From contig JAJRUW010000068.1 in assembly GCA_024277615.1 (NCBI GenBank), forward strand, positions 6,047 to 70,046: a stretch of 64,000 bases of DNA, read 5' to 3'. A model generated the notes under the pieces. The model worked only from the letters and a program-made list of their open reading frames with translations, was not told where the DNA came from and did no database searches. Of this stretch, positions 9,631-54,087 are shown in pieces. The position numbers and the translations under genes are program-made. How positions within the stretch are numbered: position 1 is the stretch's first letter; each line of letters opens with the position of its first letter. This stretch comes from Fidelibacterota bacterium. GTDB taxonomy: Bacteria; Fidelibacterota; Marinisomatia; SCGC-AAA003-L08; JACNLC01.

Positions 9631-9796
9631 CCGACTCCAGAACTTCAATTGGACAGATTTCAACGCAGAGATCACAGTCGATACAAACTTTCGCATCAAT
9701 TGAAATAGCGGCTTCTTTCAATTCAATACAATCCACGGGACAGACTGCCACGCAGGTTCCACAGAAGTCACACCTGTTTTCTCTGATGCTAATCAT
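9617..9796 (-). CDS. 2x[4Fe-4S] dicluster ferredoxin (59 aa)
   Basis: It has two CxxCxxCxxxCP motifs (CDFCGTCVAVCP and CIDCDLCVEICP). I chose the start at ATG 9796 (MISIRENR), which overlaps the UbiA stop (TAG 9789..9791). Confidence 0.8.
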   Translation of the reverse strand: MISIRENRCDFCGTCVAVCPVDCIELKEAAISIDAKVCIDCDLCVEICPIEVLESDDEK

Positions 9797-10793
9797 TATC
9801 CACCACAAAAGTCGGGTAGTGCAGGTCAAAGCGATGCCAATAATAGTATTTTGACAGATAGAATACAACGAAGACTGCCGGAAACAGCAGCGGATAAATT
9901 GACATCACGAAAACCGCCAGGATCAGTATGGAATAGCGAATGGCCCGGAGCACGTCTTTGGTTTGATTCCGAATGAGTGTAACTGCATAGAACGGCAGCG
10001 ATACCAGGGCTGCTGTGGAACTGACCGGATCCGCAAGTTTATACCCCAACAAAAAGGCTGCCAGTACAAAAAGAGTTCCTATCAGGATCGTAGTCCGCTG
10101 ACCAAAGCGGACGGGGAATGTTTTGGCTCCGGTTTCCACATCACCTTTCAGATCGGGGATTGTAGTCAGCATGGAGGTTGCAGTGAAACAGAGCAGATAG
10201 GGGACGGCAACGAGCAGCATTTTCCAGCTGACGGCTCCCGCGAGGCCGGCACCTGTGGAGTGATAAACCTGTACCCAGCCCGAGCAGTAGATGATCAGGC
10301 CGGCCAGTGAATTTGTGAGCATGCCCAGGACCGGCTTTTTCTTAAAATGAAACGGTTCCAGGTTGTACAGAACCCCCCAGAAGAAATACAGCAAAAACCC
10401 CAACAACAGGGCAGACCAGCCCGGAATTACCAGCACAACCACGCCGATGGTGCCAAACCAAATCATTAGTTTACGAGCCTGTTCCGTCGAGATGATATTG
10501 CCTACCAGGAATAATTTTTTATTCAGACTGTCACTTTTTACATCCTTGATCTGATTCAGGATGAAAGTACTGCCTGATATCAATGTCACACCTATGAACA
10601 GAAATATCGTCGGGAAATCGTAGTTGACAATCCAAACCTGGTAACGGTCAATATTCATTCTGGCAGCTGCCATGCCTACGGTGAGCATTACCCAAACGGG
10701 GAAAAACAGTGTAGGCCGGAGTAAAAATAAACGGTCGAAGAGCGGTACTATTTTTTTGTGTACGGGATGATCCCGGAAAAACTTTTTAATCAT
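9789..10793 (-). CDS. UbiA-family integral-membrane prenyltransferase
   Basis: 334 aa with about 8-9 hydrophobic segments. The first Asp-rich motif is NQIKDVKSD (NxxxDxxxD) and the second is DLKGD (DxxxD). The start overlaps the purF stop by 8 nt. Confidence 0.8.
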   Translation of the reverse strand: MIKKFFRDHPVHKKIVPLFDRLFLLRPTLFFPVWVMLTVGMAAARMNIDRYQVWIVNYDFPTIFLFIGVTLISGSTFILNQIKDVKSDSLNKKLFLVGNIISTEQARKLMIWFGTIGVVVLVIPGWSALLLGFLLYFFWGVLYNLEPFHFKKKPVLGMLTNSLAGLIIYCSGWVQVYHSTGAGLAGAVSWKMLLVAVPYLLCFTATSMLTTIPDLKGDVETGAKTFPVRFGQRTTILIGTLFVLAAFLLGYKLADPVSSTAALVSLPFYAVTLIRNQTKDVLRAIRYSILILAVFVMSIYPLLFPAVFVVFYLSKYYYWHRFDLHYPTFVVDND

Positions 10794-31670: not shown

Positions 31671-31945
31671 CAAATCTGTGCACCGCAGGTTGAACCCTCT
31701 GTTTGAAAGCTTTTTGATGCAGCCAGCTCAGCCCCAGATTTCTGCGGCACATGCTCAAGACAGCTACCGCTGCTTCCTTCCGGACCTGACGGGGTTCGAT
31801 GCCAGAACATTGCGCAGAGCTGAAAGCATCAACACTACTTACATCAATTGGCCAGCTCAGCAGAGCCCGCCCTGCGATTTTCGACCCTGCTTAAGCGGGT
31901 TTCAGGTTACAGGAAACCGCTAGCTTCCCATCTAGCACAGATTTG
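31671..31945 (-). ncRNA. ffs: Signal recognition particle RNA, large (Bacillus-type, Alu-domain-containing) form
   Basis: The minus strand contains GUCAGGUCCGGAAGGAAGCAGC (plus 31769..31790), the helix-8 signature. The 5' part, UGUGCUAGAUGGGAAGCUAGCGGUUUCCUGUAACCUGAAACCCGCUUAAGCAGGGUCGAAAAUC, resembles the B. subtilis scRNA Alu domain as I recall it. An 11-bp perfect closing helix joins 5' CAAAUCUGUGC (31935..31945) and 3' GCACAGAUUUG (31671..31681). The position upstream of dnaX matches Bacillus synteny. Confidence 0.85.
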
Positions 31946-32018
31946 TGGAGTTGAAGGGGCTTGAACCCTCGACCTCTGCATTGCGAACGCAGCGCTCTCC
32001 CAACTGAGCTACAACCCC
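31946..32018 (-). tRNA. tRNA-Ala (anticodon CGC), CCA not encoded
   Basis: The reverse complement is GGGGTTGTAGCTCAGTTGGGAGAGCGCTGCGTTCGCAATGCAGAGGTCGAGGGTTCAAGCCCCTTCAACTCCA. It folds as a cloverleaf with a 7-bp acceptor stem including the G3:U70 alanine identity pair, anticodon loop TTCGCAA and T-loop GGTTCAAGCC. The 3' flank is CAA, not CCA. Confidence 0.93.
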
Positions 32019-32042
32019 AAATTGGGAAAAATCCAACCTGTA

Positions 32043-32070
32043 AATTTACCCTTGAATCATTTTTTATCAA
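32043..32070 (-). promoter_or_regulatory. Possible sigma70-type promoter for tRNA-Ala/SRP RNA (TTGATA-16 nt-TAAATT)
   Basis: On the minus strand, TTGATA (32065..32070) and TAAATT (32043..32048) are separated by 16 nt, ~25 nt upstream of the tRNA 5' end. This is a motif match only. Confidence 0.25.
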
Positions 32071-32102
32071 AAGTGAATCAACCGGTACAAAAAAACAATT
32101 TT

Positions 32103-32133
32103 GGGAAAAAGAAAACCTGCTCATGCAGGTTTT
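32103..32133 (-). terminator. Rho-independent terminator downstream of the pilin genes
   Basis: The minus strand reads AAAACCTGC-ATGA-GCAGGTTTT followed by CTTTTTCCC. The hairpin arms are at 32112..32120 and 32125..32133. Confidence 0.75.
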
Positions 32134-32167
32134 CAAGATCGGGTGTCTGTTGAGCCGCAACGTCGTG

Positions 32168-32542
32168 TCATTGGGCAATGAGAGTGTATTCATCCTCATT
32201 ACCACCGACGGGAGAGGAGTATATCCAGGTAGAGTTATCACCGTCGTATGTGAGAATACCTGTGTTTTGATCGTAGGTCCAGCCATCAGGTATTTCATCC
32301 AGAATAAGGGGAAAGTCCAGTTGATTCGTCGCCGGATATCTCTTGACACCGTTTGTCACAATCTGGTAGGCCGCATAATTATTTAAGCCCGTTTTGATAT
32401 TCCCAATGATATATGATTTATTTGCTATGTGCGCTGTGGTTGTAAAATCAAAAAATTTCGGAACGGCAACGGCGGCCATTATTCCAATTAATGTAATTAC
32501 AATAGTTAATTCTATCAGCGTAAAACCGTCTTGTTGCTTCAT
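32168..32542 (-). CDS. Type IV pilin-like protein, paralog 1
   Basis: It has the prepilin leader MKQQDG|FTLIELTIVITLIG (G-1, F+1, E+5) and a shared C-terminus DNSTWIYSSPVGGNEDEYTLIAQ. The mature part has no Cys. Confidence 0.85.
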   Translation of the reverse strand: MKQQDGFTLIELTIVITLIGIMAAVAVPKFFDFTTTAHIANKSYIIGNIKTGLNNYAAYQIVTNGVKRYPATNQLDFPLILDEIPDGWTYDQNTGILTYDGDNSTWIYSSPVGGNEDEYTLIAQ

Positions 32543-32775
32543 GATGGCACCTCGTTTATTGTGTATATTCTTATACGTTAACTTTGTCAGTGTTAATCAG
32601 AAAATTAACAGAAAAACCGTAAAGAATATTAAATAATTATTAAACGAGCATCCAAATATTTTTTACAATATGTAAAGGTAAAAGAAGGGGTATCGATATA
32701 ACGATGCGGGTACTTGAGGTATGCCGGTTAGCTTGCAGCCGGAATTGTAATACGGGAATCTGTAACAGCTATTGT

Positions 32776-33198
32776 TTATTGGGCAATTAGCGTATATTTT
32801 GAAGCGTTTCCGCTGACAGGCGAAGTATAAAGCCAGGTTGAATTATCTTCGGAAAATGTGAGTGTGCCGCTGGCTGGTGTGTAGGACCAACCATCCGGAA
32901 CCTCATCAAGGATAGCTTCCAGCCTGAGGTCAATTGTGGCCGGGAAGACCTTTTGATTATTTTGTGCCAGCTGATCAGAGGAATAACTGCTAAGGCCCGA
33001 ACGGATGATGCCGATAATTTTATCTTTGTTCGCCTCCTGAGCAACGGATTTCATGTCAAAGAATTTCGGAACGGCAACTGCTGCAAGGATGCCAATGATC
33101 GCAATGACAATAACCAGTTCTATCATTGTGAATCCCGTCTTCGAATAAGTGCAGGTTTGAGGGATATTTTCGGACAGTAATAATTTTTGTGTTTTCAT
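32776..33198 (-). CDS. Type IV pilin-like protein, paralog 2 (long leader)
   Basis: The leader and cleavage site read ...YSKTG|FTMIELVIVIAIIG. I set the start at ATG 33198 (MKTQKLLL) because the longer ORF-track start would include the 33207..33238 hairpin. The C-terminus is DNSTWLYTSPVSGNASKYTLIAQ. Confidence 0.8.
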   Translation of the reverse strand: MKTQKLLLSENIPQTCTYSKTGFTMIELVIVIAIIGILAAVAVPKFFDMKSVAQEANKDKIIGIIRSGLSSYSSDQLAQNNQKVFPATIDLRLEAILDEVPDGWSYTPASGTLTFSEDNSTWLYTSPVSGNASKYTLIAQ

Positions 33199-33206
33199 GA
33201 TTGTGA

Positions 33207-33238
33207 GAAGTGGGCTGCCTGTTATGACAGCCCACTTC
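33207..33238 (-). terminator. Perfect 11-bp stem-loop after pilin paralog 3 (no U-tract): attenuator or mRNA-stabilising hairpin
   Basis: GAAGTGGGCTG (33207..33217), a 10-nt loop, then CAGCCCACTTC (33228..33238). It lies 41 nt downstream of the pilin-3 stop. Confidence 0.45.
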
Positions 33239-33278
33239 AACATTGTCTGTTATAACAATGAACCGAGTAAGTCAGGAA

Positions 33279-33665
33279 TTATTGTGCCACTAAAGTATAT
33301 TTTGAAGCGTCACCTCCGACCGGTGATGTATAAAGCCAGGTTGAGTTATCACCGCTGTATGTCAAGATCCCGGTTCCCCCAACATAGGACCAACCGTCAG
33401 GCACTTCATCGAGAATGCTCTCAAGTGTCAATGATGCAGTTGCAGGGAAAGTCTTAGTCCCGTTAGTCGCCAACTGATTTGAGGCATAATTATTCAGACC
33501 GGTTTTAATATTTCCAATAACTGCATTTTTATTTGCGTTATGGGCCGTGGTTGTCAGATCAAAGAATTTCGGAACAGCAACCGCAGCCATTATACCGATA
33601 ATGGCAATTACGATGATTAATTCAATAAGCGTGAAACCACTTTGATGTTTATGGTTGTTTTTCAT
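33279..33665 (-). CDS. Type IV pilin, paralog 3 (best candidate major pilin)
   Basis: It has MKNNHKHQSG|FTLIELIIVIAIIG, preceded by AAGGAG. A sigma54-like promoter lies upstream and a strong hairpin downstream. The C-terminus is DNSTWLYTSPVGGDASKYTLVAQ. Confidence 0.85.
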   Translation of the reverse strand: MKNNHKHQSGFTLIELIIVIAIIGIMAAVAVPKFFDLTTTAHNANKNAVIGNIKTGLNNYASNQLATNGTKTFPATASLTLESILDEVPDGWSYVGGTGILTYSGDNSTWLYTSPVGGDASKYTLVAQ

Positions 33666-33733
33666 TATTCTTCTCCTTGGATTATTTTATTATTAAAATT
33701 CTTTTTTCAGTGTACCCGTCTTAAATGTACTTT

Positions 33734-33750
33734 TACAAGAACTGTGCCGG
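33734..33750 (-). promoter_or_regulatory. Candidate sigma54 (-24/-12) promoter upstream of pilin paralog 3
   Basis: The minus strand reads CCGGCACAGTTCTTGTA. GGCAC is at -24 and TTGTA at -12 with canonical spacing, but the -12 GC is GT. It lies ~70 nt upstream of the ATG. Confidence 0.4.
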
Positions 33751-33807
33751 TAATAATAATGTATGCTAATACATTGTATCATAAGATGTTAAGTTCCTTA
33801 CTAAATG

Positions 33808-33833
33808 GAGTGTGTCGCAGAATATGACACCTC
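33808..33833. promoter_or_regulatory. Inverted repeat GTGTC-N9-GACAC (extended GAG..CTC), possible activator binding site
   Basis: GTGTC is at 33812..33816 and GACAC at 33826..33830. The centre lies ~70 nt upstream of the -24 element of the pilin-3 promoter candidate. Confidence 0.3.
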
Positions 33834-33903
33834 TGTAAAAAAAAAGAACAGGCAATGCACAAAATGCAGGGGAAACACGGCCTGATCAGTAATAATTCCC
33901 AAC

Positions 33904-34128
33904 TCACAGATGGATGATAACCGTATAAGTTAAAAATACTGCTAGGGCTACGAGGATAATACCAATGCTGTGCCGGTGCGAATAAATATAGTAATCGGTT
34001 ATTATATCATTTGAAGATGTGTTTTGGTGAATATACTCACCAAGTTTTATTAACGTCTTAGGTGAGAATATCAGCAATATTCCGCTGAGAACTAAAATGC
34101 AGGCAATGGTTGCTAAATATAGTTTCAA
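33904..34128 (-). CDS. Small 2-TM membrane protein, paralog of 37002..37265
   Basis: 74 aa with two hydrophobic helices flanking a polar loop. LIFSPKTLIKLGEY aligns with LFFNSEKLQKICRAY of the other copy. Confidence 0.5.
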   Translation of the reverse strand: MKLYLATIACILVLSGILLIFSPKTLIKLGEYIHQNTSSNDIITDYYIYSHRHSIGIILVALAVFLTYTVIIHL

Positions 34129-34140
34129 GGGTTGTTTCTC

Positions 34141-35451
34141 CTAATATTCTATAATCGACTCGGGCATTAATTGATAACGGATGTCTGATGTGAAGCGGGA
34201 AAAATTATTCTCAAAAAGGACCATACTCCCTTCAGTCAGTTCTGGTTGACGGCCAATTTTTGAAGCAACCAGGCTGCCCTCAAAATGAGCCTGATCCCCC
34301 AATAATTCCAGCCCTTCTGCAGGTGCATATATCCCGCCGAAAACCTTACCGGAAAGGACAATCTTTTTGTTCGGACTTATTAGCTGTCCCCAAATCGTCT
34401 TGTAGTTCCGATCAATGTTGATAGAAGCATGGGAAAAAATCTCATTACGTAAGACGGGTCTCTCTAAAGGTCGTGTGGTCTGTCGGTCGATGCCGAATTG
34501 TGTATTTTTTTTAATTCTGATTATTTTCTTTGAAATAAGTATTATATTGTCACCGAAAATTGTTGGCCTATCATGTTCTCCTTTAAGGGTTAAGCTTCCG
34601 GTAGTAACTAAAAAAGCAGGATCGGCAGTTGATCCGCCATAGACGGAGACTCCCTCAAATTCCGCCTCACCTTTGATGAACAGTGTCTTGTCGGGAAATG
34701 TGCTCAAATCCAGGTTATCATTTTCAAGCTCATAATTTCCCAGAATTTTATTATCCTTCGTACTAGTGATTGTTTCGGCAATATCAATGAGAGAATCTTC
34801 TTGCGAAAAATCGAAGTTAGTCGTCGGAGCAAGATCCACAAGAGTCGTGTTCAGGTGATTACCCTGCCCATTGTCAGCAATTGAAGAAGACGACAGATGA
34901 TAAAAGTCCGCACTCTCAATATTACCGACACATCCATCACAATCGATGGACAGATTATCTTCGAAGAATATATCACCGTCAAATCTAAAATGATTACGGA
35001 AACTAATATTCGCTAACTGTCCATCTGATATTATCGATATCGCGGGCCAGTCCGGGGAGCTTACCATAGTAAACTGAGCCTGCATACGTCTTGAACTTTT
35101 TCCTACGAGCGAAGTACTTTCCAACCGGATGTGATCTGACGGCAAAGCAATTCCAAAACGATCCGTTGTTGAAGATTTGATGGAAATATCCCCTTTAAAA
35201 AATTGCCAACTCCCAATGAGTGATGGCAGGGAGTTTGCCTTAAGCCATTGTTTGGAAAAACAAATCCCTGATTTTGCATTAAGACCGGACTGAATGTCAG
35301 AAATATATTTTTCAGAATCAACGGCAGTTTTTGTGACCGTATTTACAGCACCGGTAATGAGTAATATAATTATCATTGATGAAAAAAGAGAAACCATGGA
35401 GAAAATGAAACCGCTGTTGGCTGCTACAATGGTTTGTCCTTGGCATTTCAT
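34141..35451 (-). CDS. Giant GspK/PilX-like minor pilin with predicted beta-solenoid C-terminal region (paralog B)
   Basis: 436 aa. The N-terminus is ...NSG|FIFSMVSLFSSMIIILLI (a pilin-like hydrophobic helix without E+5). It shares blocks with 35511..36980: TTDRFG, RRMQAQF/RRIQAYF, IDCDGCVGN, EDSLIDIAE, GDNIILIS, PLERP and the C-terminal IIEY/IVEY. Confidence 0.55.
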   Translation of the reverse strand: MKCQGQTIVAANSGFIFSMVSLFSSMIIILLITGAVNTVTKTAVDSEKYISDIQSGLNAKSGICFSKQWLKANSLPSLIGSWQFFKGDISIKSSTTDRFGIALPSDHIRLESTSLVGKSSRRMQAQFTMVSSPDWPAISIISDGQLANISFRNHFRFDGDIFFEDNLSIDCDGCVGNIESADFYHLSSSSIADNGQGNHLNTTLVDLAPTTNFDFSQEDSLIDIAETITSTKDNKILGNYELENDNLDLSTFPDKTLFIKGEAEFEGVSVYGGSTADPAFLVTTGSLTLKGEHDRPTIFGDNIILISKKIIRIKKNTQFGIDRQTTRPLERPVLRNEIFSHASINIDRNYKTIWGQLISPNKKIVLSGKVFGGIYAPAEGLELLGDQAHFEGSLVASKIGRQPELTEGSMVLFENNFSRFTSDIRYQLMPESIIEY

Positions 35452-35510
35452 CTTTAAATTTGTCCGGAACAGGTTTCAGCTCAGATTGGTAAATTCTTTA
35501 ATAGTACAAT

Positions 35511-36980
35511 TTAATATTCAACGATGGTTCCGGGAACGATATCATAGCCAATCGTCGCCAAAAAATAGTTCTGATTTCGGTTTGTAAGGTTCATGCGTCC
35601 ACGTTTTAAATCACCATTTGGTGGTTTCGACAATTCCCGTGTGAACACGGTACCTTCAATATAGCTGTTGTGGTCGTCGAATTCTAACCCCTCACCGGCG
35701 TACACGACACCATAATAAACACCATCTATTTTTACTTTGTGGGTCGGAGAAATTGATTGTGCCCAAACTGTTTTTACATTATGATCGATGGAAATTTCAC
35801 GGTTTGCATATAGTTCATTGACCGTTAGGGGACGTTCCAGGGGATTTATGTCCGAATAATCAATTCCCACCTGGGCTTCTTTTTCAGCTTTTATGTCTTC
35901 ATCTGAAACAAGGATTATATTATCGCCAATGGTGGTACCATTATGATGTTTTTCTTTAATTATTATATCTTTGGTAGCAACAATAAAACATGGTTCGGCG
36001 ATACTGCAATCAAGCACATTACAACCTTTAAGTTCTACTTTTCCTTTTACAAACAGTGTGTTATCCTCATAATCAGTAAGATTAATATCCGAATTTTCAG
36101 GTTTATAATCACCTTTGATCTTATTACCTGTTGTATGAGAAATTGCTTTGGCAATATCTATAAGACTGTCTTCATAAAAGAAATTAGCAGCAGGAATGAA
36201 CATTTCACCCACCGTTTCCCAGGACCATAAATTCCCGGAGCCGTTGTCGGTGATATTATTGCCGTTTCTCCTGTAAAAATATGCACCGGAGTTATTTCCA
36301 ACACAGTTATCACAATCAATATTGACGTCTGTACCAAAATAGACCGTACCGTCAAAGATAAAATCATCTTTCATGACAATGCCGGACTCATGGCCACCCC
36401 CGTGACCACCCCCGTGACCTCCATCGTGACCTCCGCCGTGACCATGCCCGCATCCACCGTCATCGTCATCATCATCATCATCATCATCATCATCGTCGTC
36501 CTCGTCATCATCCCCGTGACCGCCAGCGTTTTTCACTGACTCAACTACGGATATATCAGGCCAGAAATTGTTATTTAACGAGGAAAAATACGCTTGAATT
36601 CGCCGTACGCTGTTCCCGACAGTCGTCGTGCTGATGACACGCACCATCCAGGGCGGTAAGCTGTTTCCAAATCTGTCTTTTGTGGATGTTGTAATTGCAA
36701 TTGTGCTGTTGTGGAAATCCCAATTTCCTTCAACACTAGCCAGATTGTGGGTCTGTATCCACCTTTTGGTGAATTCGATCCCCGAGACGGAGCTGTATTT
36801 TGATTGAGATGAAGAAAGTGACTCTGAAGACAATGTCGTCGAGAGAGAGACCGAATTCATCGACCAGAGAACGATAGACCCCAGAATAAAGGTGACACCA
36901 AGTGACATTATGGAAAAAGCAAATCCGCCCTGGCGATCTGTTCTGCAGTTACTCAAATTTATATTATTCTGCTTTTTCAT
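35511..36980 (-). CDS. Giant GspK/PilX-like minor pilin (paralog A) with poly-Asp / His-Gly insertion
   Basis: 489 aa. The N-terminus is ...RQGG|FAFSIMSLGVTFILGSIVLW (no E+5). The insertion is GGHGDDDEDDDDDDDDDDDDDDGGCGHGHGGGHDGGHGGGHGGGHESG (aa ~153-199). The C-terminal two-thirds is collinear with paralog B. Confidence 0.55.
   Translation of the reverse strand: MKKQNNINLSNCRTDRQGGFAFSIMSLGVTFILGSIVLWSMNSVSLSTTLSSESLSSSQSKYSSVSGIEFTKRWIQTHNLASVEGNWDFHNSTIAITTSTKDRFGNSLPPWMVRVISTTTVGNSVRRIQAYFSSLNNNFWPDISVVESVKNAGGHGDDDEDDDDDDDDDDDDDDGGCGHGHGGGHDGGHGGGHGGGHESGIVMKDDFIFDGTVYFGTDVNIDCDNCVGNNSGAYFYRRNGNNITDNGSGNLWSWETVGEMFIPAANFFYEDSLIDIAKAISHTTGNKIKGDYKPENSDINLTDYEDNTLFVKGKVELKGCNVLDCSIAEPCFIVATKDIIIKEKHHNGTTIGDNIILVSDEDIKAEKEAQVGIDYSDINPLERPLTVNELYANREISIDHNVKTVWAQSISPTHKVKIDGVYYGVVYAGEGLEFDDHNSYIEGTVFTRELSKPPNGDLKRGRMNLTNRNQNYFLATIGYDIVPGTIVEY
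36466..36494 (-). repeat. (GAT)9 trinucleotide microsatellite encoding part of the poly-Asp tract
   Basis: The plus strand reads TCA x9 + TC without interruption (36466..36494). It is flanked by GAC/GAG/GAT codons that extend the acidic run. Confidence 0.9.
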
Positions 36981-37001
36981 TAGAACCTCCGTTTTATTAA
37001 T

Positions 37002-37265
37002 CTAAAGTTGAAGGAAAATTAATAACAGACCTGCTGCTGCGAGAATCCCTCCGAAACTGAAACGGTAAAGAAAGATCGCTTCATCATTCTCATTATATAT
37101 TTTCATGGCAGAAAATTGCAGATGTTTACTGTAGGCTCGGCAAATCTTCTGCAGTTTTTCTGAATTAAAGAAAAGCGCTGCACTAATCGTGAGCAGGGTT
37201 GCTACCAGGGCCAGGATAAAAATTTTATAAATAATCATAAATCCCTTAATTCTCCGGATAAACAT
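37002..37265 (-). CDS. Small 2-TM membrane protein, paralog of 33904..34128 (start may be ATG 37238)
   Basis: It has two hydrophobic helices (IFILALVATLLTISAALFF and FGGILAAAGLLLIFLQL). The ORF-track start overlaps the upstream gene by 20 nt; the internal Met10 removes that overlap. Confidence 0.45.
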   Translation of the reverse strand: MFIRRIKGFMIIYKIFILALVATLLTISAALFFNSEKLQKICRAYSKHLQFSAMKIYNENDEAIFLYRFSFGGILAAAGLLLIFLQL

Positions 37266-37782
37266 CGGCGATAAACCTAACCGACTGGTCTCCCGATTTC
37301 AATAGCAGATTCAAACGTGTACGCCATACATTTGCCAGGGTTTCGGTTAAGTCATCACCCTGATTATAATAATAAAACCCGCTGGAGTCAACCACAACGT
37401 TAGCGGTCACGATCATAGGAGAACCCTCACCGATAATTTGACGGAATAAGCCACCATTACCAAGCGTATATTCAACTGTAAGCGTATCATCCGACGCAAA
37501 TGAGCTTTGTTGATAACTGAATCTGAGAGTAGTATTACCAACAGAAACCAAATCCACCAGGGCTTCATATTCCCGGGTAAACCGTTTTACACTGTTGGAA
37601 CCATCGAGTACAATTTGTTTTCTCGTTTGAATCGTGTTGACAGTATTGGTACTTACCGAAATAATCGAGGCCACTACAACGGAGATGATAGTTACCACCG
37701 CCATACCAATTATCAATTCAATTAGTGTAAACCCTGGCAATCTGGAAAATGAGGAATGTAGTGGCTTTTGCATCATCATCAT
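37246..37782 (-). CDS. Minor pilin / pseudopilin (GspJ/PilW-like)
   Basis: It has the prepilin motif ...SRLPG|FTLIELIIGMAVVTII. 178 aa. The start overlaps the upstream stop (ATGA). Confidence 0.7.
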   Translation of the reverse strand: MMMMQKPLHSSFSRLPGFTLIELIIGMAVVTIISVVVASIISVSTNTVNTIQTRKQIVLDGSNSVKRFTREYEALVDLVSVGNTTLRFSYQQSSFASDDTLTVEYTLGNGGLFRQIIGEGSPMIVTANVVVDSSGFYYYNQGDDLTETLANVWRTRLNLLLKSGDQSVRFIADVYPEN

Positions 37783-38252
37783 GGTGTCATTATAGATGTT
37801 ATATTTACGGGAGCCTGCAATTCCGGGTGTAATACAGTAACGATAATTCTCTTATAATCGGTAACAGTTCCGACACTGTCCAGCAGATTGACATTAGGAT
37901 CAACATAGAATACTCTTGTTTTACCTGTAAAGCCAAAATAGCCCTGGTAGGTAAATGTGTATCCGATGTAATCATCAATATCATCATAATCTGCGGCTGA
38001 ATTTTCTTCCGCACCTAAGGGGTCACTCCAGGGAGACAGTGACTGCTCATCGAAAGAGTGTGCTCTGACGACCTCCATAATATTATTTGCCATAGATGTT
38101 CCGCGTATGATGGCTTCCATCCGGTTCTCCTGAGATTGCAGATTGCGCAGTGTCACCAGAGATGCAATAAAGGCGACACTGAGAAAAATTATCCCGACAA
38201 TAATGTCGAGCAGTGAAAAACCTTGCTGATATTTTCTAATTTGCATAAACAT
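37779..38252 (-). CDS. Minor pilin / pseudopilin (GspI/PilV-like)
   Basis: It has ...KYQQG|FSLLDIIVGIIFLSVAF (D at +5). 157 aa. Confidence 0.65.
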   Translation of the reverse strand: MFMQIRKYQQGFSLLDIIVGIIFLSVAFIASLVTLRNLQSQENRMEAIIRGTSMANNIMEVVRAHSFDEQSLSPWSDPLGAEENSAADYDDIDDYIGYTFTYQGYFGFTGKTRVFYVDPNVNLLDSVGTVTDYKRIIVTVLHPELQAPVNITSIMTP

Positions 38253-38717
38253 AGCCCGTTTCGGCAGTTACGATGATAAACTTGTTGTCGTTCAGGGCAA
38301 TAGTACCCCCTGCCGACGGTGTACCCCACCAATCAAAAATATTTCACTACCGCCGGAAAAATCTACAGCCGTCAAACTGACACCGGGGTATAGATCATCC
38401 AGTAAAAACTCCCCTGGCTCATTTGTTGAAGGATCGAGCATTAGCTGCCTGTTTTGCACATTTGGACCTGAATATATTCCATATTTATTTTGATTTACAT
38501 TTATGACCAACCAGGTTGTATCGTGAACTGAAGCTGCATAATCGGCGATGTACTGAATATCTTCTTTCAACTTCTCACTGGCATTATTAAGACGCAGGTT
38601 TATTATCACAGTATTGACTTTTGAACTAACGATGACGGATAGAATGCCCACGATTGCAATAACCATAATGATTTCAATGACCGAAAAACCGTCCTTTGAC
38701 ATCCCTTTGAAGATCAT
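38236..38717 (-). pseudogene. Minor pilin / pseudopilin (GspH/FimT-like) with apparent 1-nt frameshift at an A5 run (38335..38339)
   Basis: The N-terminus is MSKDG|FSVIEIIMVIAIVG. The ORF-track frame ends in ...SEIFLIGGVHRRQGVLLP*. The adjacent frame continues as FDWWGTPSAGGTIALNDNKFIIVTAETGYVYAN*, with the stop TAG at 38236..38238. That reads like a normal GspH-type C-terminus and overlaps the next gene start. Confidence 0.65.
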
Positions 38718-38808
38718 CGGAGGGGTCAGCCCTGAATTCCTGTTGCGTCTTTTGGGAATGATAATTTCCCATTAGATTGTACGGATTTTTCCATTATGAG
38801 GTTATTTC

Positions 38809-38824
38809 TGCAAAAATCAAACCG
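38809..38824 (-). promoter_or_regulatory. Candidate sigma54 promoter upstream of the minor-pilin operon
   Basis: The minus strand reads CGGTTTGATTTTTGCA: GG-N10-GC spacing with a perfect -12 TTGCA. It is nearly identical to the element at 54142..54158. Confidence 0.45.
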
Positions 38825-38943
38825 TCAATAAAAATTACGGGAAATTGATGATTTTCCGGAATGTGTTGTCTTATGATTGTACAGAATCTGTCTTATAATG
38901 TTACAAGCCCGTACCGACTGAGGCAGACTTATCAGTCAAGTGC

Positions 38944-39336
38944 TCAGGCTGCGGCAAATTCTATTTTTAATCCTTCTGCAATTGATTTGTGTAATCCATA
39001 AAAAGACACCGGTTTTGGGAAAAAATCAACATCACCTGAAACCTCTAATTTGTCCGATATCTCTTTCTCATAATTTAAATGACCGGTCATTACAATTTTT
39101 TTTAAGTCTTCCTGAATGGCATCCGCACGATTCAATAACTCGAATCCGTCGATTACGGGCATGCGGATATCCGTAATCAGTACATGGTATTTCTCACATT
39201 TAAGGAATTCAAGCGCTTCCATACCTGAATAGGCTGTCCTGATAGAATATTTATCGGTTAGTGTTTCCAACCCTTTTTTAAGCAGCTTACACAGGCGGAT
39301 TTCATCATCAACTATGAGTACTTTAATTTTTTCCAT
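38944..39336 (-). CDS. Single-domain response regulator (CheY-like receiver)
   Basis: It has KVLIVDDE, the acceptor HVLITDIRMPVIDG, VMTGH and FPKP. 130 aa. Confidence 0.85.
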   Translation of the reverse strand: MEKIKVLIVDDEIRLCKLLKKGLETLTDKYSIRTAYSGMEALEFLKCEKYHVLITDIRMPVIDGFELLNRADAIQEDLKKIVMTGHLNYEKEISDKLEVSGDVDFFPKPVSFYGLHKSIAEGLKIEFAAA

Positions 39337-39347
39337 ACACCTTAAAC

Positions 39348-39363
39348 TGCAATTTTCAGGCCA
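39348..39363 (-). promoter_or_regulatory. Candidate sigma54 promoter immediately upstream of the receiver gene
   Basis: The minus strand reads TGGCCTGAAAATTGCA against the consensus TGGCACG-N4-TTGCW, with 2 mismatches and exact spacing. The -12 C lies 13 nt upstream of the A of the ATG. Confidence 0.4.
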
Positions 39364-39493
39364 GGCAATTTATAGATAAAAATATTCAACTTATTTCAAT
39401 ATATTGTAATTCATTGTTGATATTTGGGACATGCGGTAAATAAATATTACACTTCGATAATGTTCACAGCTCACTGAGAAACTGTCAACGAAT

Positions 39494-40705
39494 CTATTTC
39501 ATCAAGGTATTCATGTCCCACATTGGCAGGAAGATCCCCATTGCAAAGATCAACAGAAAAATCCCGATCAGCACCGTCATGAGAGGCTCAATCACGGCAC
39601 TGAGCCCATCGATTTTTGCATCTACTTCGGTATCATATTGGTGTGCAATGTTTTCCAGCATCTGTTCCAGACTTCCTGACCGTTCACCGATTGAGATCAT
39701 TTTAATGGTCATCTTTGGAAAATACCGGCTGTCGGATAATGACTCGGATAGTGAAACTCCTTCAACTACCTGCCCTTTGGCGCTGCTGATGTCCTTTTTG
39801 AGAATTCTGTTTTCCAGCGTCAGTTCGGTAATTTCCAGTGCCTTCACGATCTGAATCCCGCTTTTCATCAGTGTTTGCAGGATATGCGCAAATCTAGCTA
39901 CGGATGACTTTAAGATAATATCCTTAAAAATCGGAATTGATAACTTTAATTTATCAAAAGATACGGCACCTGCATTAGTCTTCAGATAAAACCGCAGGGC
40001 TGTAATGATCCCGATAATTGCCAGCAGTGTAATCCACCAGTAATTGATAAACATGTGACTTATTCCAATCAAAATACGAGTGGGCAGAGGCAGCGTCACA
40101 CCTGCTGAAAGGAACATTTTTGAAAATTTAGGTATGATGAAAACGATTGCACCGGTGAAGGCAAGGGCCAGAATGGTCAAAACGATGATGGGATATCGCA
40201 GAGCCGCTTTGATGTTTTTTGAAACCTGGATATCATGACGAATGAAAACCCTTAAATTATCGAGTATCCCTTCCAAAACACCGGTAGCTTCACCGATTTT
40301 TACCATGTTGACATAAAGTGTATTGAAGACGTTTGGATGATCCGCCAGAGCAGAGGAGAAAGGTTGACCGCTTCTTACTTTTTGGATAATATCTTGTAAG
40401 ATCTTCTGCAATTTATCGGTTTCGGCCTGCTCCTCAATAGACTCCAGACATTCAATCAGCGGGACACCGGCTTTTAACATTACAACCAGTTGAGAAGTCA
40501 GGTTTTCCAGTTCTTGGGGTTTTACGACCTTCCTGAATTTTGGGAATACCTGTAAATTGATGGGTTCAGCTTTTTCTTTCAGAGAAAGCAGTGTATTGTT
40601 TTCCGACTCCATGATCTCATAGACCTCAAATTTGGAGTCCGCCTCGATGGTTGTCTCCCTTATCAAACCATCGCTGGTTACAATTTTACAGCTGAACCGG
40701 GGCAC
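39494..40705 (-). CDS. pilC: Type IV pilus platform protein PilC/GspF family
   Basis: 403 aa with two T2SSF repeats, three TM segments and a GTG start preceded by AAGGAG. It has MLKAGVPL, GEATGVLEG, LMKSGIQIV and GERSGSLEQML. Confidence 0.9.
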   Translation of the reverse strand: MPRFSCKIVTSDGLIRETTIEADSKFEVYEIMESENNTLLSLKEKAEPINLQVFPKFRKVVKPQELENLTSQLVVMLKAGVPLIECLESIEEQAETDKLQKILQDIIQKVRSGQPFSSALADHPNVFNTLYVNMVKIGEATGVLEGILDNLRVFIRHDIQVSKNIKAALRYPIIVLTILALAFTGAIVFIIPKFSKMFLSAGVTLPLPTRILIGISHMFINYWWITLLAIIGIITALRFYLKTNAGAVSFDKLKLSIPIFKDIILKSSVARFAHILQTLMKSGIQIVKALEITELTLENRILKKDISSAKGQVVEGVSLSESLSDSRYFPKMTIKMISIGERSGSLEQMLENIAHQYDTEVDAKIDGLSAVIEPLMTVLIGIFLLIFAMGIFLPMWDMNTLMK

Positions 40706-40768: not shown

Positions 40769-42166
40769 TCAGTCATCCCGGTCTCCCTGTAAATCATAAA
40801 TTTTCATTTTCCTGTATAAGGCTGTTCGAGAAATACCGAGTGCTTTGGCAATTTTACTGATATTTTTTTTGCCTATCTGCAGAGCATGTTCTATAGCCAA
40901 TCGTTCAACCTCTGCAAGCGGTAAAATAGTTTCTCCAAAAACCAACTTATCGGCCCCGGTGGAAGGCGGGTCAGGCTCAGTTTGTCGGTAAACAGCCTCC
41001 TCGAGGATAGATTTTTCCAGGTGAGGTTCTTTTGCATAAAATATTATGCGTGTCAGCAGGTTACCCAGCTCTCTGATATTCCCTTTGAGAGGGAGCTCGC
41101 AGATGCTGTTTATCAGGTCGGAGGATATCGATTTTAAATCGAGCATTGAACTTGTGAGGTAATTACCGAGCAAAAACAAGATCAACAGAGGAATGTCACC
41201 GGGACGTTCTTTCAAAGGCAGCAGACGGATCGGGATCACGTTCAATCTGTGGAATAAGTCTTCTCTAAATTTACCCTCGGCGATGAGTTTTTCGAGACTC
41301 ATATTCGTAGCGGCAATCACTCGGATATCAACGGTTTTTGTGGTTGTACTCCCGAGTCTCTGAACAGTATGATCCTCCAATACCCGCAGCAGCTTTGCTT
41401 GCAGATCAAGCGCCATGTCACCAATTTCATCCAGGAAGATTGTGCTGTTATCAGCGAGCTCGAACATGCCGGGTTTAGCAGTATTAGCGCCTGTAAAAGC
41501 ACCTTTCTCATAACCGAAAAGCTCACTTTCCAGAAGATGTTCGGGGATTGCAGCGCAATTCAGAGAAATAAAATTTTGACTGCTCCGGGAACTTAGCTGA
41601 TGGATGGATCTGGCAACCAATTCTTTGCCGGTACCGCTGTCACCGAGAATCATAACGGTAAAGTCAGTCGCGGCCACTCTTGTAATCTGACGGTAAATAT
41701 CCAGCATGTGAGACGAATTGCCGACAAATTTTCCAAAACCGTTTGGTTTCAGGTGCGTTCGCAGTTTTTCGGGCAGGGCCTTTTTAAGACCGGAATAAGT
41801 ATTGATCCTGGAATGAATATCCGGTAATTCCGAAAGTATCATTTTGCGAAGATTGATCGAAAAAAGGGCATCATTTTTCCCGCAGAGTTCTCCACTGATT
41901 TTGTTACCGTCATAAAATATGATGACGGGCAGATGCCGGTCCTGGCGCCTCAGGCGTCGTATAAATCCGCTGTAATTATTCCGGAGCAGCTTCCAGTCCA
42001 GGAAAATGGCAGAAAATGTTTCAACAGTTGCATAGGATAACACCGAGGTCAGGTTCCGTGTGACCGTCAATTCTGATGAATTCTCCTGCAGACTGGATTT
42101 TAATTTCTTAATAAATCCGGGATCGGATTTTAACAGTCCCGTCGATATGCCCAGCAAGTAGCGCAT
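40769..42166 (-). CDS. Sigma54-dependent transcriptional activator (PilR-like) with degenerate N-terminal receiver
   Basis: It has the AAA+ core GDSGTGKELVARSIH, the GAFTGA loop (EKGAFTGANT) and a C-terminal Fis-type HTH (NISKIAKALGISRTALYRKMK). The N-terminal domain lacks the acidic DD pair (LLGISTG) but keeps IFLDWKL. Confidence 0.88.
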   Translation of the reverse strand: MRYLLGISTGLLKSDPGFIKKLKSSLQENSSELTVTRNLTSVLSYATVETFSAIFLDWKLLRNNYSGFIRRLRRQDRHLPVIIFYDGNKISGELCGKNDALFSINLRKMILSELPDIHSRINTYSGLKKALPEKLRTHLKPNGFGKFVGNSSHMLDIYRQITRVAATDFTVMILGDSGTGKELVARSIHQLSSRSSQNFISLNCAAIPEHLLESELFGYEKGAFTGANTAKPGMFELADNSTIFLDEIGDMALDLQAKLLRVLEDHTVQRLGSTTTKTVDIRVIAATNMSLEKLIAEGKFREDLFHRLNVIPIRLLPLKERPGDIPLLILFLLGNYLTSSMLDLKSISSDLINSICELPLKGNIRELGNLLTRIIFYAKEPHLEKSILEEAVYRQTEPDPPSTGADKLVFGETILPLAEVERLAIEHALQIGKKNISKIAKALGISRTALYRKMKIYDLQGDRDD

Positions 42167-43836: not shown

Positions 43837-44607
43837 CTATCCTTTAATGATCAGAGTATGTACGTACCAGTTGATAATTTCCGGACCATATAAAATGCTG
43901 ATCAATGCTCCTAAACTAAGATAAGGTCCGAATGGCAATCGTCTGCCCAAACCTGATTTGCCGCTGACCAGCAATATCAAAATGACGATTGCCGAAGAGA
44001 AAAACGCCAGTGCAACGACTAATATACCTTCCTGCCACCCAAAAAAGAGACCCAGCAAAAATGCAAATTTCACATCCCCCAATCCCATCGCATCCTGTTT
44101 CAGAATGAGTTTTCCCAGAATTCTGATAATCAGAAAACCGAGTCCAAGTCCCAAAAAGCCCCAGAAATGCTGTGGAATCCCCGCATAACCACTACGGTAA
44201 ACAAAATACAGGGCCGGGACTAAAGCAATTACTAAAAAGGAGTCCGGTATAATTTGGACATCAAAATCGATAAAGGTCAAACCAATCAGGAGGCAGAGAA
44301 AGATGCCATAAAATATAAAATCAATGGGGTCACTAACACGTAAATAGGTGACAAATAAAATTGCTGCCGTCAGAAGCTCCACTAAAGGATATCGAATTGA
44401 TATCTTTTGGGCACAATTTGAGCATTTACCTCGCAGAAAAATATAGCTGAGTACGGGGATATTCTCGTACCACAGGATCATGTGTCCGCAATTTGTGCAG
44501 CTTGAACGGGGTGAGACAATGGATTTTCCCAGGGGAATCCGGTAAATGCAGACATTGAGAAAACTCCCAATTACCAGGCCCAGTATGATCACGAGTGCTG
44601 ATATCAT
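43837..44607 (-). CDS. pilD: Prepilin peptidase (A24 family)
   Basis: It has the N-terminal zinc-finger cysteines CTNCGH...CSNCAQ, multiple TM segments and the catalytic region MGLGDVKF. Confidence 0.9.
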   Translation of the reverse strand: MISALVIILGLVIGSFLNVCIYRIPLGKSIVSPRSSCTNCGHMILWYENIPVLSYIFLRGKCSNCAQKISIRYPLVELLTAAILFVTYLRVSDPIDFIFYGIFLCLLIGLTFIDFDVQIIPDSFLVIALVPALYFVYRSGYAGIPQHFWGFLGLGLGFLIIRILGKLILKQDAMGLGDVKFAFLLGLFFGWQEGILVVALAFFSSAIVILILLVSGKSGLGRRLPFGPYLSLGALISILYGPEIINWYVHTLIIKG

Positions 44608-53000: not shown

Positions 53001-53240
53001 GATAACAGATTCGTGATCATGCTCTGCCCTTTCCTGTTTTTTCCCGGTAGTATCGGATTTCTGTTCGGGCTTTGGGGTTTCCTTGCCTTCTGAGTTATTT
53101 TTAGATTCGTCATCGGGGGCTTGAGAAGGTTTTTCCGGTACTGCTCTGGTGCGCAGTTCTTTCTCCGCATCCTGTGCCCTCAACAGGTCTAAAAGCCTGT
53201 TGGTGGCAATTTCACCTCGTTTAGATGTCGGATTAGACAT
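50043..53240 (-). CDS. PilM-PilN fusion (MshI-like) with ~450-aa Lys/Pro/Ala/Glu/Ser/Thr-rich disordered N-terminal region
   Basis: I chose the start at ATG 53240 (MSNPTSKRGE), which overlaps the exeA-like stop. The ORF-track aa ~530-900 look like an actin-like PilM fold (ISLHQDNNQLWLLQ..., LFDGVGSTFPNLVQ). A TM follows (LMTAMAVVLLPLFAVSGFWM), then a PilN-like periplasmic domain. Confidence 0.7.
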   Translation of the reverse strand: MSNPTSKRGEIATNRLLDLLRAQDAEKELRTRAVPEKPSQAPDDESKNNSEGKETPKPEQKSDTTGKKQERAEHDHESVIQPKVLPVTKSKKTEIKIPGTLRGEKKSPKPAAEPGLKSGNTSEKTGLLEKLRLTRQKSEKSENTDSQKKTTSADLRKSDISGKSELSAPKKTTPAPVSKLDELIAAKKKAAGAAANQRSAHTVETTSTQGTPAVPKKASTKNAVTRELARIEEILNNIDQRSAVRSVDKPAEAPSVQPGKTPEIASPAKVTKSPDAVEKTPPKRKEKDQPQAETPKIKEESQSSGKKEAPRLKTAGADGKAASETLGAAGETARLEELLKDKLGSKPDEPAAPERSKEPKAAKPAAGKGITKSPEAVKSKPAATDTPAEKKPREVRKEKAGLTPTVSIATSSGKMRLSRIEKGSTEDAAKLKKGSNILSPIEEPSAKPASSPGKPDALLKNTALKKGEVAPVVVKPPGFDEELFKVIPELEIKPKGGHFLTSLKNKFNEATYKISLHQDNNQLWLLQIKEDGKGTEIRDFREYTLPYHEGKLTLDSVEKLIDHVLENDIDDSVRSISYSAFLSAKHPTKTHIFQTPRLKSGDLSDLVAWHAKKNLPFSSDHAVINWEQIKSPDKSIKDDIVISAGDRSVIEKSIATFEIHKLKLRYYSTIPVIMWKAFMQNYPDLNRGCYVLVRMGEMRTVVTVINSHKLAFSREIAIGADDLYKAVMKKVTADDKSIQIDLPMARQLLKKYGFPKDRTGISEGSHIDLYKISIFLRPVVERITSELNRSLNYFKKQNPDLNWEVMLFDGVGSTFPNLVQTINQSLNLKAGYFNPLRTGKYRFKGGKVIAESQLPNFVTNFALLAKNTEPLNIIPEKNRSEYRYIFRSKLMTAMAVVLLPLFAVSGFWMSTRYDSISVKLDEKRIHAEQLTKRKNEMLTLQKDTKLIEDYYRLLENDRVYTVYQRNLLKLLSNIIPKDIKLTSLSFTKETRETVDDNGVKTVNSIDDVLLLNGFVTSDVSLAHIQLTNFRLKLEQLPYFSSVSIDMEDIAEKASNKFLFNLKLGI

Positions 53241-54087
53241 TAAAAGGGTCCTCAGACTGCATTTTTTTAAAGACCAGCGTACTATCGACAATTTCCTTAC
53301 CGTTCAGGAGCATATCCATGATGAGATAATGACATAAATTGACAATTTTGCGCGGATACCCTTTCGTATGTTCGTGAATCATTTTTTTTGCTTCATCGGT
53401 GAAGAGACGTTCCCCCGCAGGCAGGCCGGCTACTTTCAGGCGGTGGTCGATAAAAGCAATAGTACTGCTCTCGTTGAGAGGTTTGATCACATAACCAAAA
53501 GCGATTCTGTCCTTAAAATTTTCATGCTGATTTACCAGTTCCTGAAATTCCGGTTGGGCAAAAATGACCACCTGGATCAGTTTTCGATCGTTGGTTTCAA
53601 AATTCAGTAATGTACGGATGACTTCTATCTGATCGGCTCCCATTTTCTGACCTTCATCGATTAATAGCACAATCTCTTTATTCGAGTGGATGGCCGAATC
53701 CAGCAGGAAATGTTCGACCTGGTTCATAGTGTCCGTTTTGACATCGGCTTTATTTTTAATTATGAAAAGTCGTTTCAAAAAGAGCAGAAACTCCATTCCA
53801 TCCCTCCAGGTCGGATTCAGGATCAGGAAAAAATCATAGTTTTTCCCGAATTCCACAAAACGGTCCAGGAGCAGGCGTGAAAGCGTAGTCTTTCCGGTCC
53901 CGACATCACCGATGACAACATGCAGTCCGCGATTGAGTCTGAGTGACATTTCGAGACGATTCAGGCATTCACCGTGATTTTTAGTTTGATAGAAAAACTC
54001 CGGATCAGGAGCCATGGCAAATGGTTCACGAACCAGTCCCAGCAGTTCATAATAACCGGCCTGAGAATTTTTTAGGGATGTACTCAA
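53233..54087 (-). CDS. ExeA/MshM-like AAA ATPase
   Basis: It has YYELLGLVREPFAMAPDPEFFY, Walker A GDVGTGKTT, Walker B LLIDEGQ and FAQPEF. 284 aa. Confidence 0.85.
   Translation of the reverse strand: MSTSLKNSQAGYYELLGLVREPFAMAPDPEFFYQTKNHGECLNRLEMSLRLNRGLHVVIGDVGTGKTTLSRLLLDRFVEFGKNYDFFLILNPTWRDGMEFLLFLKRLFIIKNKADVKTDTMNQVEHFLLDSAIHSNKEIVLLIDEGQKMGADQIEVIRTLLNFETNDRKLIQVVIFAQPEFQELVNQHENFKDRIAFGYVIKPLNESSTIAFIDHRLKVAGLPAGERLFTDEAKKMIHEHTKGYPRKIVNLCHYLIMDMLLNGKEIVDSTLVFKKMQSEDPFNV

Follow-up and report, generated by a model that had tools for sequence, protein, structure and literature searches.

Predicted tip pilins with beta-solenoid heads and a conserved pair of small membrane proteins in a type IV pilus gene cluster of a Fidelibacterota bacterium

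A 64,000-nucleotide stretch of contig JAJRUW010000068.1 from a Fidelibacterota bacterium (GenBank assembly GCA_024277615.1; hereafter, the window) contains a type IV pilus (T4P) gene cluster in which four genes raise a question. In transcription order on the minus strand, they encode a small protein with two predicted transmembrane segments (2-TM; small A, or s78), large proteins of 489 and 436 amino acids (aa), and a second small 2-TM protein (small B, or s74). What place could such large proteins have in a pilus, and do the small membrane proteins belong with them? Named relatives of the large proteins are almost all from Marinimicrobia (Neomarinimicrobiota). Marinimicrobia (SAR406) are abundant, uncultured ocean bacteria; we know of no described mode by which they attach to particles, and a literature search found no relevant paper on Marinimicrobia pili. 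Our analysis indicates that the 489- and 436-aa proteins are probably apical minor pilins of the ComZ/PilX class that are accompanied by conserved small partners.

The two large proteins are paralogs. They align from end to end with 35% identity (BLASTP, E=1e-92), and the sole large gap in the alignment reflects an insert of 47 residues, rich in Asp, His and Gly, in the 489-aa protein. The collinear blocks listed in a preliminary description of this DNA, which was made from the sequence alone, are all present in both proteins (IDCDxCVGN, EDSLIDIA, GDNIIL, PLERP and a terminal I[IV]EY). Each protein has one hydrophobic segment, at its N-terminus, and no Pfam or NCBIfam model matched either of them. 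Relatives nevertheless exist: when 1.84 billion cluster representatives were searched exhaustively with HMMER, 46 were recovered at E<1e-3, 25 of them at E<1e-30, and most matches are full-length (410-650 aa). A word-indexed search of 5.8 billion proteins with the 436-aa protein returned only itself and one 71%-identical fragment from a metagenome-assembled genome of an "FCB group bacterium", and a scan of genome contigs with the 436-aa protein alone found no relative, whereas scanning the GTDB species genomes with a family sub-alignment yielded 12 loci, 11 from Candidatus Neomarinimicrobiota and one from Lentisphaeria. In the public database, the 436-aa protein (P0001) is annotated as a 314-aa product beginning at the internal Met123, such that the pilin-like N-terminal domain is absent from the entry, indicating that automated annotation hides this class of protein. 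Among 30 family members, three match DUF7305 (PF23981) in the solenoid region, and one of these matches exceeds the threshold; neither large protein of the window matches it, and no paper found by our literature search mentions DUF7305 or DUF6199, a family to which we return below. One locus labelled "uncultured Lentisphaeria" (L025, CAYVVT010000015.1) carries a full large-small-small module and may reflect a binning error or horizontal transfer; the other named loci are assigned to Marinimicrobia (Neomarinimicrobiota) or simply to "FCB group" or "bacterium".

Predicted structure suggests what kind of protein this family comprises. An AlphaFold2 (AF2) model of the 436-aa protein, built on a 30-sequence family alignment, reached a predicted local distance difference test score (pLDDT) of 88.7 and a predicted template modelling score (pTM) of 0.78; an earlier run on a three-sequence alignment (pLDDT 48.5) was left out of the fold search. 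The model consists of a helix (residues 13-72) and four strands (80-131) resembling the pilin "lollipop", with pLDDT ~80-94, followed by many short repeated strands (139-412) and a last strand (424-428). When this model was compared with the PDB using Foldseek, the sole match at E<0.001 was ComZ of Thermus thermophilus (6qvi, chains A to C; E=1e-7 to 2e-6, probability 1.0), and the next matches were the ice-binding proteins (IBPs) 4nu3, 3uyv, 9lhn, 3wp9 and 4nu2 (E=0.03-0.08). ComZ itself is composed of a domain like the pseudopilins of type II secretion systems (T2SSs), specifically GspK-like, and a triangular beta-solenoid whose closest fold is that of FfIBP (PMC6561018). The architecture predicted for the family is a pilin domain joined to a large triangular beta-solenoid of the ice-binding-protein fold, in agreement with the C-terminal beta-solenoid and the analogy with ComZ that had been proposed from the sequence.

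The two ends of these proteins, in turn, resemble those of pilins that sit at the pilus tip. The N-termini of the window proteins read G/FAFSI (489 aa) and G/FIFSM (436 aa; the slash marks the predicted cleavage site) and lead into a hydrophobic helix in which position +5 is Ile or Met. Gly is present at -1 in 28 of 28 family members that have an N-terminus, 22 of these have Phe or Tyr at +1, and none has Glu or Asp at +5, which is occupied by Ala, Ile, Gly, Val, Thr, Leu and similar residues instead. The GspK/PilX-like helix lacking Glu+5 that was originally noticed in the two window proteins is therefore a property of the family. The neighbouring pilins of the window carry Glu at +5, except for a 157-aa protein that has Asp. 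At the other end, the family shares the C-terminus (S/T)-x-x-E-[Y/F/I]-COOH, in which Glu435 is nearly invariant. Homologs of PilK invariably lack Glu+5 and constitute the most apical subunit of the pilus, and assembly is licensed by an extreme C-terminal beta-strand that is supplied either in cis, by GspK/CpaL/ComZ-type proteins with a big preceding insertion, or in trans, by PilY1 (PMC13533445, 2026 PNAS). According to a preprint, an IBP-like solenoid is inserted ahead of the last strand in every cyanobacterial PilX protein and has been proposed to substitute for PilY1 as a tip plug (bioRxiv 10.64898/2026.02.12.705559). No PilY1-like gene is present in the pilus cluster of the window; the large proteins thus conform to an established type of apical minor pilin, one whose solenoid head is part of the same polypeptide. 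Gene position is consistent with this assignment. As had been pointed out, the four genes follow three minor-pilin genes that resemble those for H-, I- and J-type subunits and precede three pilin genes, and the order of H-/I-/J-like pilins, large gene and pilins recurs in the related loci L003, L005, L010, L012, L026 and L027.

Do the small genes belong to the same unit? All four open reading frames (ORFs) lie on the minus strand where the preliminary description placed them, but the first is probably shorter than the 87 aa given there. Its start is most likely the ATG at 37238 (78 aa), because an independent gene call in L002 also gives 78 aa and because this start agrees with the alignment to the 80-aa homolog in L003; the 87-aa reading (37002-37265) overlaps the upstream gene. 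Each small ORF encodes two hydrophobic segments. BLASTP detects no similarity between s78 and s74, but profiles made from their respective orthologs align in register over 62 columns (hhalign, probability 96.6%, E=6e-10), supporting the earlier suggestion that the two are paralogous; they appear to be old, distant paralogs. Both are under strong purifying selection: s74 is 91% identical to its L001 counterpart, with 26 synonymous and 7 non-synonymous differences and a ratio of non-synonymous to synonymous substitution rates (dN/dS) of 0.05, and s78 differs from its L002 counterpart by 22 synonymous and 3 non-synonymous changes (dN/dS 0.03), indicating that both ORFs are real genes. In an alignment of 24 small-protein sequences, Leu19, Arg52 and Gly56 are invariant and Gly16 and Pro23 nearly so, within a conserved frame of AP...GE..NR...R...G. 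The loop between the hydrophobic segments generally carries a net positive charge and would, by the positive-inside rule, face the cytoplasm. The preliminary description knew of no counterpart of these proteins in canonical T4P/T2SS sets, and we found no curated Pfam or NCBIfam family that matches them above threshold. For s74, the match to DUF6199 (PF19701) reaches 20.5 bits, short of the 27.7-bit cut-off, and one Marinimicrobia homolog is also a weak match; s78 does not match DUF6199, and homologs of the small proteins show weak, inconsistent matches to DUF4345, DUF2065 and DUF2905.

The pairing of small and large genes is conserved. Hidden Markov models of the large and small families were run on every fetched locus, and, of 16 non-redundant loci reached through the large protein, 14 extended far enough downstream to be evaluated. 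In 13 of these 14, the large gene is immediately followed by one or two small genes, with gaps of 15-311 nucleotides (nt); L009 is the exception. Conversely, a word-indexed search of the 5.8 billion proteins with a small-protein profile yielded 21 clusters, the named ones from Marinimicrobia or an unclassified "bacterium", and in all four of the locus types reached through a small protein, the small gene lies directly after a verified member of the large family (E=1e-80 to 8e-151) in a pilus cluster. The preliminary description had staked its proposal on the pairing being conserved elsewhere, and it is. The order of the genes varies, being large-small-small in most Neomarinimicrobiota, small-large-small in L003 and small-large-large-small in the window and L002. 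Because synteny survives this rearrangement, the small proteins are very likely tied functionally to the solenoid pilin. What is conserved is a single solenoid pilin together with the small paralogs, of which most loci have two; this small pair is ancestral. Other genes occur beside the small ones in some relatives: in L005, a 219-aa gene with a weak PG_binding_1 match (9568-10227) lies between the two small 2-TM genes, and in L007 (2692-2979), L010 (7506-7793) and L027 (9956-10243), a conserved 95-aa gene is convergent to them. The product of the latter contains the motif H-N-I-K-G, which recalls HPt phosphotransfer domains; no such gene was noticed at the equivalent position of the window.

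These comparisons alter one claim of the preliminary description, which regarded the four genes as a duplicated module. Tandem duplication of a small+large unit was rejected, since in L003 two small genes surround one large gene and most relatives have the order large-small-small; duplication was limited to the large gene and took place in the clade of the window. The single large gene of L003 encodes a protein (P0004) that is nearer to the 489-aa protein (41% identity, 361 bits) than to the 436-aa protein (35%, 250 bits), and the close relative L002 also contains the start of a second large copy, indicating that the duplication is confined to this clade. The 436-aa protein is the more divergent copy. 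Its C-terminal part has dN/dS=0.11 with dN=0.17 relative to L001, compared with 0.01-0.07 for neighbouring genes, and dN is 0.01 for the adjacent pilins, indicating that it is fast-evolving yet constrained. A decaying pseudogene was considered and rejected, given this dN/dS and an intact reading frame.

The region that joins the pilin domain to the solenoid is variable, both between the paralogs and across the family. In the 489-aa protein, which consists of a 19-residue leader, the G/FAFSI helix, a pilin sheet, an Asp/His-rich insert, a beta-solenoid and the conserved C-terminal strand, the DNA of the insert comprises (GAT)n (3 nt, 17.7 copies) and a 12-nt repeat (4.2 copies), and the length of the insert differs in P0003, the ortholog of this protein. 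Asp/His runs occur in or near the pilin-solenoid junction in at least eight family members, including a 553-aa Marinimicrobia member with a (DDHG)n run in the junction region, and P0016 and P0039 have an additional, second Asp/His run near the C-terminus. Three members have a CBM96/disaggregatase-repeat module inserted in or near the junction region, and one has DUF7467. Both solenoids of the window are acidic (isoelectric point, pI, 4.6-4.7), and paralog 1, the 489-aa protein, additionally has a run of ~20 Asp/Glu residues. A junction that accepts swappable binding modules favours a ligand-binding tip and mildly disfavours a DNA receptor like ComZ; the variation in these inserts suggests an adhesin role.

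Our data are consistent with the following model. Each large protein would be cut after the invariant Gly of a class-III signal peptide, and its mature form would comprise a helix lacking Glu+5, a four-stranded pilin sheet, a triangular IBP-type beta-solenoid of ~290 residues and the conserved last C-terminal strand. The 489- and 436-aa proteins would occupy the position of PilK/PilX/GspK in a type IVa-like pilus, where each may nucleate a priming complex with the 157- and 178-aa pilins encoded upstream, its C-terminal strand completing the pilin sheet in cis. The large protein would then stay at the tip of the fibre, where its solenoid would serve as plug and adhesin in place of the absent PilY1. 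With the gene duplicated, the cell would have a choice of two tips, and the poly-Asp/Gly-His insert of one of them probably binds cations or the surfaces of minerals or particles. The two small 2-TM hairpins may form an inner-membrane pair that holds the Glu+5-less tip pilin, or hands it over, before assembly. We consider it likely that the large proteins are alternative apical minor pilins that prime assembly with the 157- and 178-aa pilins and display the IBP-like solenoid at the tip as plug and adhesin. The proposal that the small pair is an inner-membrane unit that retains the Glu+5-less pilin, processes it or passes it on is tentative, and its extended form is offered just as cautiously: the small proteins might be a heterodimer and an unrecognised, lineage-specific T4P component that chaperones the tip pilin, gates its processing or delivers it to the assembly platform, with the Asp/His-rich insert grabbing metal- or mineral-bearing particles. 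To our knowledge, no such small-protein factor is part of any T4P or T2SS set.

Several observations weigh against this model. Neither window protein is linked to GspK or PilX by sequence in Pfam or NCBIfam, and a profile of 30 family members searched against all PDB sequences matched none of ComZ, GspK and PilX (6qvi was absent even at E<=10). The superposition on ComZ is weak (TM-score 0.26-0.30, root-mean-square deviation ~14 Å) and its query is itself a prediction; with TM-scores this low, the match signifies shared architecture and local fold, not close superposition. The analogy with ComZ is supported by the model for architecture, not as demonstrated homology. That the last strand (424-428), which is predicted to follow the solenoid, rejoins the pilin sheet in cis is inferred. 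The labels H-, I- and J-like for the upstream trio reflect gene order, size and sub-threshold matches and are best regarded as provisional. Finally, L009, which encodes a distant family member, has no small gene beside the large gene.

The ComZ match invites another reading, in which the large proteins are DNA receptors of a competence pilus and the solenoid binds extracellular DNA for transformation. ComZ is the closest solved structure, it binds DNA as well as its GspI-like neighbour PilA2, and its gene occupies the same position (pilA1-3, comZ, pilA4; PMC6561018). We nonetheless regard this function as improbable for the window proteins, since both solenoids are acidic, paralog 1 has its run of Asp/Glu, and relatives carry CBM96 at the same junction. 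The lysines with which ComZ contacts DNA cannot be mapped onto the window proteins because no sequence alignment is available, and the argument from charge is weak because ComZ itself lacks basic patches. A more radical alternative is that the large proteins are not pilus subunits at all, but signal-anchored beta-helix proteins of the periplasm or cell surface, such as polysaccharide-active enzymes. Beta-helices are common among lyases and hydrolases, the model has weak Foldseek matches to a PL6 lyase and a polygalacturonase (E>1), and the window proteins match no pilin family in Pfam. Models for PilX_N (PF14341) and T2SS GspK, for example, match neither protein at E<=1. This alternative is very improbable, however, as it does not account for the invariant Gly(-1) and frequent aromatic residue, usually Phe, at +1, for a pilin helix and sheet predicted with pLDDT ~80-94, or for a gene whose place between minor pilins and pilins is the same in every locus; in addition, the distant family member P0030 matches PilX_N, albeit below threshold (E=6.4e-4, 20.1 bits, cut-off 25.5), and the best structural matches are ComZ and non-enzymatic ice-binding proteins.

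For the small genes, the alternative is that they encode generic membrane proteins of the DUF6199/DUF4345 sort that are merely co-transcribed with the tip pilin and have no role in its function. Their weak, sub-threshold matches to several unrelated families of small membrane proteins would be expected in that case, as would a locus such as L009. Yet the small genes adjoin the large gene in every evaluable locus of the Neomarinimicrobiota type despite changes in gene order, all four locus types found with small-protein probes adjoin a member of the large family, and the proteins are strongly conserved by purifying selection and restricted to merely 21 clusters among 5.8 billion proteins. Co-transcription without a shared function therefore seems unlikely.

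How does the predicted tip pilin compare with systems already described? ComZ of T. thermophilus HB27 (PDB 6QVI) similarly combines a pseudopilin-like N-terminal domain with a large triangular IBP-like beta-solenoid, has its gene downstream of those for three minor pilins and upstream of that for the major pilin, and is too bulky for the body of the fibre, placing it at the tip (PMC6561018). The window proteins differ in having no detectable sequence similarity to ComZ (global TM-score 0.30), in being shorter (436-489 aa compared with 498-518 residues in the 6QVI chains), in their acidic solenoid with an Asp/His-rich insert in one copy, in the duplication of the gene and in the two small 2-TM genes alongside. 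Cyanobacterial PilX resembles them in that it occurs in genomes without PilY1 and its solenoid is a proposed tip plug and adhesin, and there are several PilX subfamilies, which give alternative priming complexes; it belongs to another phylum, the likeness is one of described architecture, and the part of the preprint available makes no mention of small 2-TM partners (bioRxiv 10.64898/2026.02.12.705559). GspK, PilK and PilX, each the first subunit of the complex that initiates the tip, likewise have no Glu at +5, and the (S/T)xxE[YFI] terminus of the window family fits an in-cis C-terminal strand with a large preceding insertion in systems without PilY1 (PMC13533445). The extra domain of GspK, however, is alpha-helical and placed mid-sheet, and PilX and PilK are small and depend on PilY1 or PilC in trans. 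The idea that this locus is an undescribed sub-system thus has to be divided. An apical minor pilin bearing a solenoid is already a published kind (ComZ in 2019, the cyanobacterial PilX as described in the 2026 preprint, and the strand-addition framework of PMC13533445), while the small pair is undescribed; the novelty lies in these two conserved membrane partners and in the modularity of the junction.

Our analysis defines a sequence family, for which no curated model matches the window proteins, as the predicted tip subunit of a Marinimicrobia pilus, and it would add another phylum to those, represented by Thermus and cyanobacteria, that have a design in which a solenoid replaces PilY1. The modules at the junction of stalk and head (acidic His-rich runs, CBM96 and DUF7467) are candidates for what these pili bind, and the conserved small membrane pair is a new candidate assembly factor for apical pilins.

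The cluster in which these genes reside runs on the minus strand from ~54.1 kb down to 32.1 kb of the window (Table 1) and contains a complete PilBCD/MNOPQ/T set. It begins with an ExeA-like ATPase, a 1082-aa PilM-like fusion, PilO- and PilP-sized genes, a secretin and two PilT-type ATPases, continues with a response regulator, the prepilin peptidase, PilB, a sigma-54 activator, PilC and a second response regulator, and ends with the 141-, 157- and 178-aa pilin-like genes, the four genes discussed above and the 128-, 155- and 124-aa pilins. The gaps separating the 178-aa gene, s78, the 489-aa gene, the 436-aa gene and s74 are 7, 21, 59 and 12 nt, respectively, short enough for the segment from the 178-aa gene through s74 to be read as one operon.

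Table 1. Features of the pilus cluster and its downstream border (positions in the window; strand and basis where given)
Feature	Position	Strand	Basis
ExeA/GspA-like AAA ATPase	53233-54087	-	best match TIGR03015
PilM-like protein, 1082 aa	50043-53291	-	PilM/Amuc_1101 models
Prepilin peptidase (PilD)	43837-44607		
Sigma-54 activator	40769-42166		
Minor pilin, 141 aa, G/FSVIE, GspH/FimU/ComGD-like	38292..38717	-	position, N_methyl motif, sub-threshold GspH/ComGD NCBIfam matches
Minor pilin, 157 aa, G/FSLLD, PilV/GspI position	37779..38252	-	weak PilV match, E=0.006
Minor pilin, 178 aa, G/FTLIE, PilW/GspJ position, just upstream of small A	37246..37782	-	N_methyl above Pfam threshold
Small 2-TM protein A, 78 aa (87-aa ORF reaches 37265)	37002..37238	-	hydrophobicity, orthologs, dN/dS
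Predicted ComZ-like apical minor pilin, 489 aa, paralog 1	35511..36980	-	paralogy, family profile, N-terminus
Low-complexity insert of the 489-aa protein, residues 147-200, poly-Asp then GGH repeats	36381..36542	-	TRF
Predicted ComZ-like apical minor pilin, 436 aa, paralog 2, more divergent, no acidic insert	34141..35451	-	AF2 and Foldseek
Small 2-TM protein B, 74 aa, TTG start	33904..34128	-	hydrophobicity, orthologs, dN/dS
Sigma-54-like -24/-12 element, GGCAC-N5-TTGT, ~70 nt 5' of the first pilin gene	33735..33748	-	
Three tandem pilin genes, 128, 155 and 124 aa, GFTLIE N-termini	32168..33665	-	N_methyl, E=2.9e-10 to 4.6e-7
Terminator-like hairpin 3' of the pilin trio	32111-32134		terminator scan
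tRNA-Ala(CGC)	31945-32018	-	

The three pilins encoded upstream, two of which (157 and 178 aa) would prime assembly together with the large proteins in our model, returned nothing informative when compared with PDB sequences, and the 141-aa protein has no solved relative by sequence. Pfam and NCBIfam scans gave the 141-, 157- and 178-aa pilins weak GspH/ComGD, PilV and GspI/ComGF matches. Homologs of the 178-aa pilin immediately precede the large gene or the small A gene in related loci. Homologs of the 157-aa pilin are retained in L002, L003, L005 and L010, and the gene is under purifying selection (dN/dS 0.07). The Asp that this protein carries in place of Glu at +5 is shared by its homolog in L010 (G/FSIID), and the L005 homolog has Glu (G/FSLLE).

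The three tandem pilins downstream are paralogs with near-identical N-termini and a common C-terminal block, DE(V/I)PDGW(S/T)Y...DNSTW(L/I)Y(T/S)SPV(G/S)G...YTL(I/V)AQ. The 128- and 124-aa pilins are 98% identical to their counterparts in L001, where the adjacent 436-aa protein is only 71% identical. The sigma-54-like element preceding this trio is retained as TGGCAT-N5-TTGT at the matching position in L001, and a sigma-54 activator gene lies within the cluster. We rejected the motif as statistically supported, since three matches occur in the window and 2.6 are expected by chance; its support comes from its position and its conservation in L001, and it is retained as a positional note. Beyond the pilin array and the terminator-like hairpin lie the tRNA-Ala(CGC) gene and then a dnaX-ybaB-recR-pgsA-pgpA block, an arrangement that is syntenic in L001 and L003. 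The G+C content is ~0.40 over 32000-40000, a region that includes the pilins, the minor pilins and PilC, compared with 0.44-0.53 in the flanks.

At the head of the cluster, the ExeA/GspA-like ATPase has its best match to TIGR03015, an XrtA/PEP-CTERM-associated model (166 bits, cut-off 324.5). In the PilM-like protein, residues 608-1009 match the PilM/Amuc_1101 models; the N-terminal half, ~500 residues, is of low complexity and rich in Lys, Glu, Pro, Ala and Ser, and the C-terminal part, with transmembrane and coiled segments, is possibly a fused PilN. An AT-skew excursion of -0.28 at 52-54 kb coincides with this gene.

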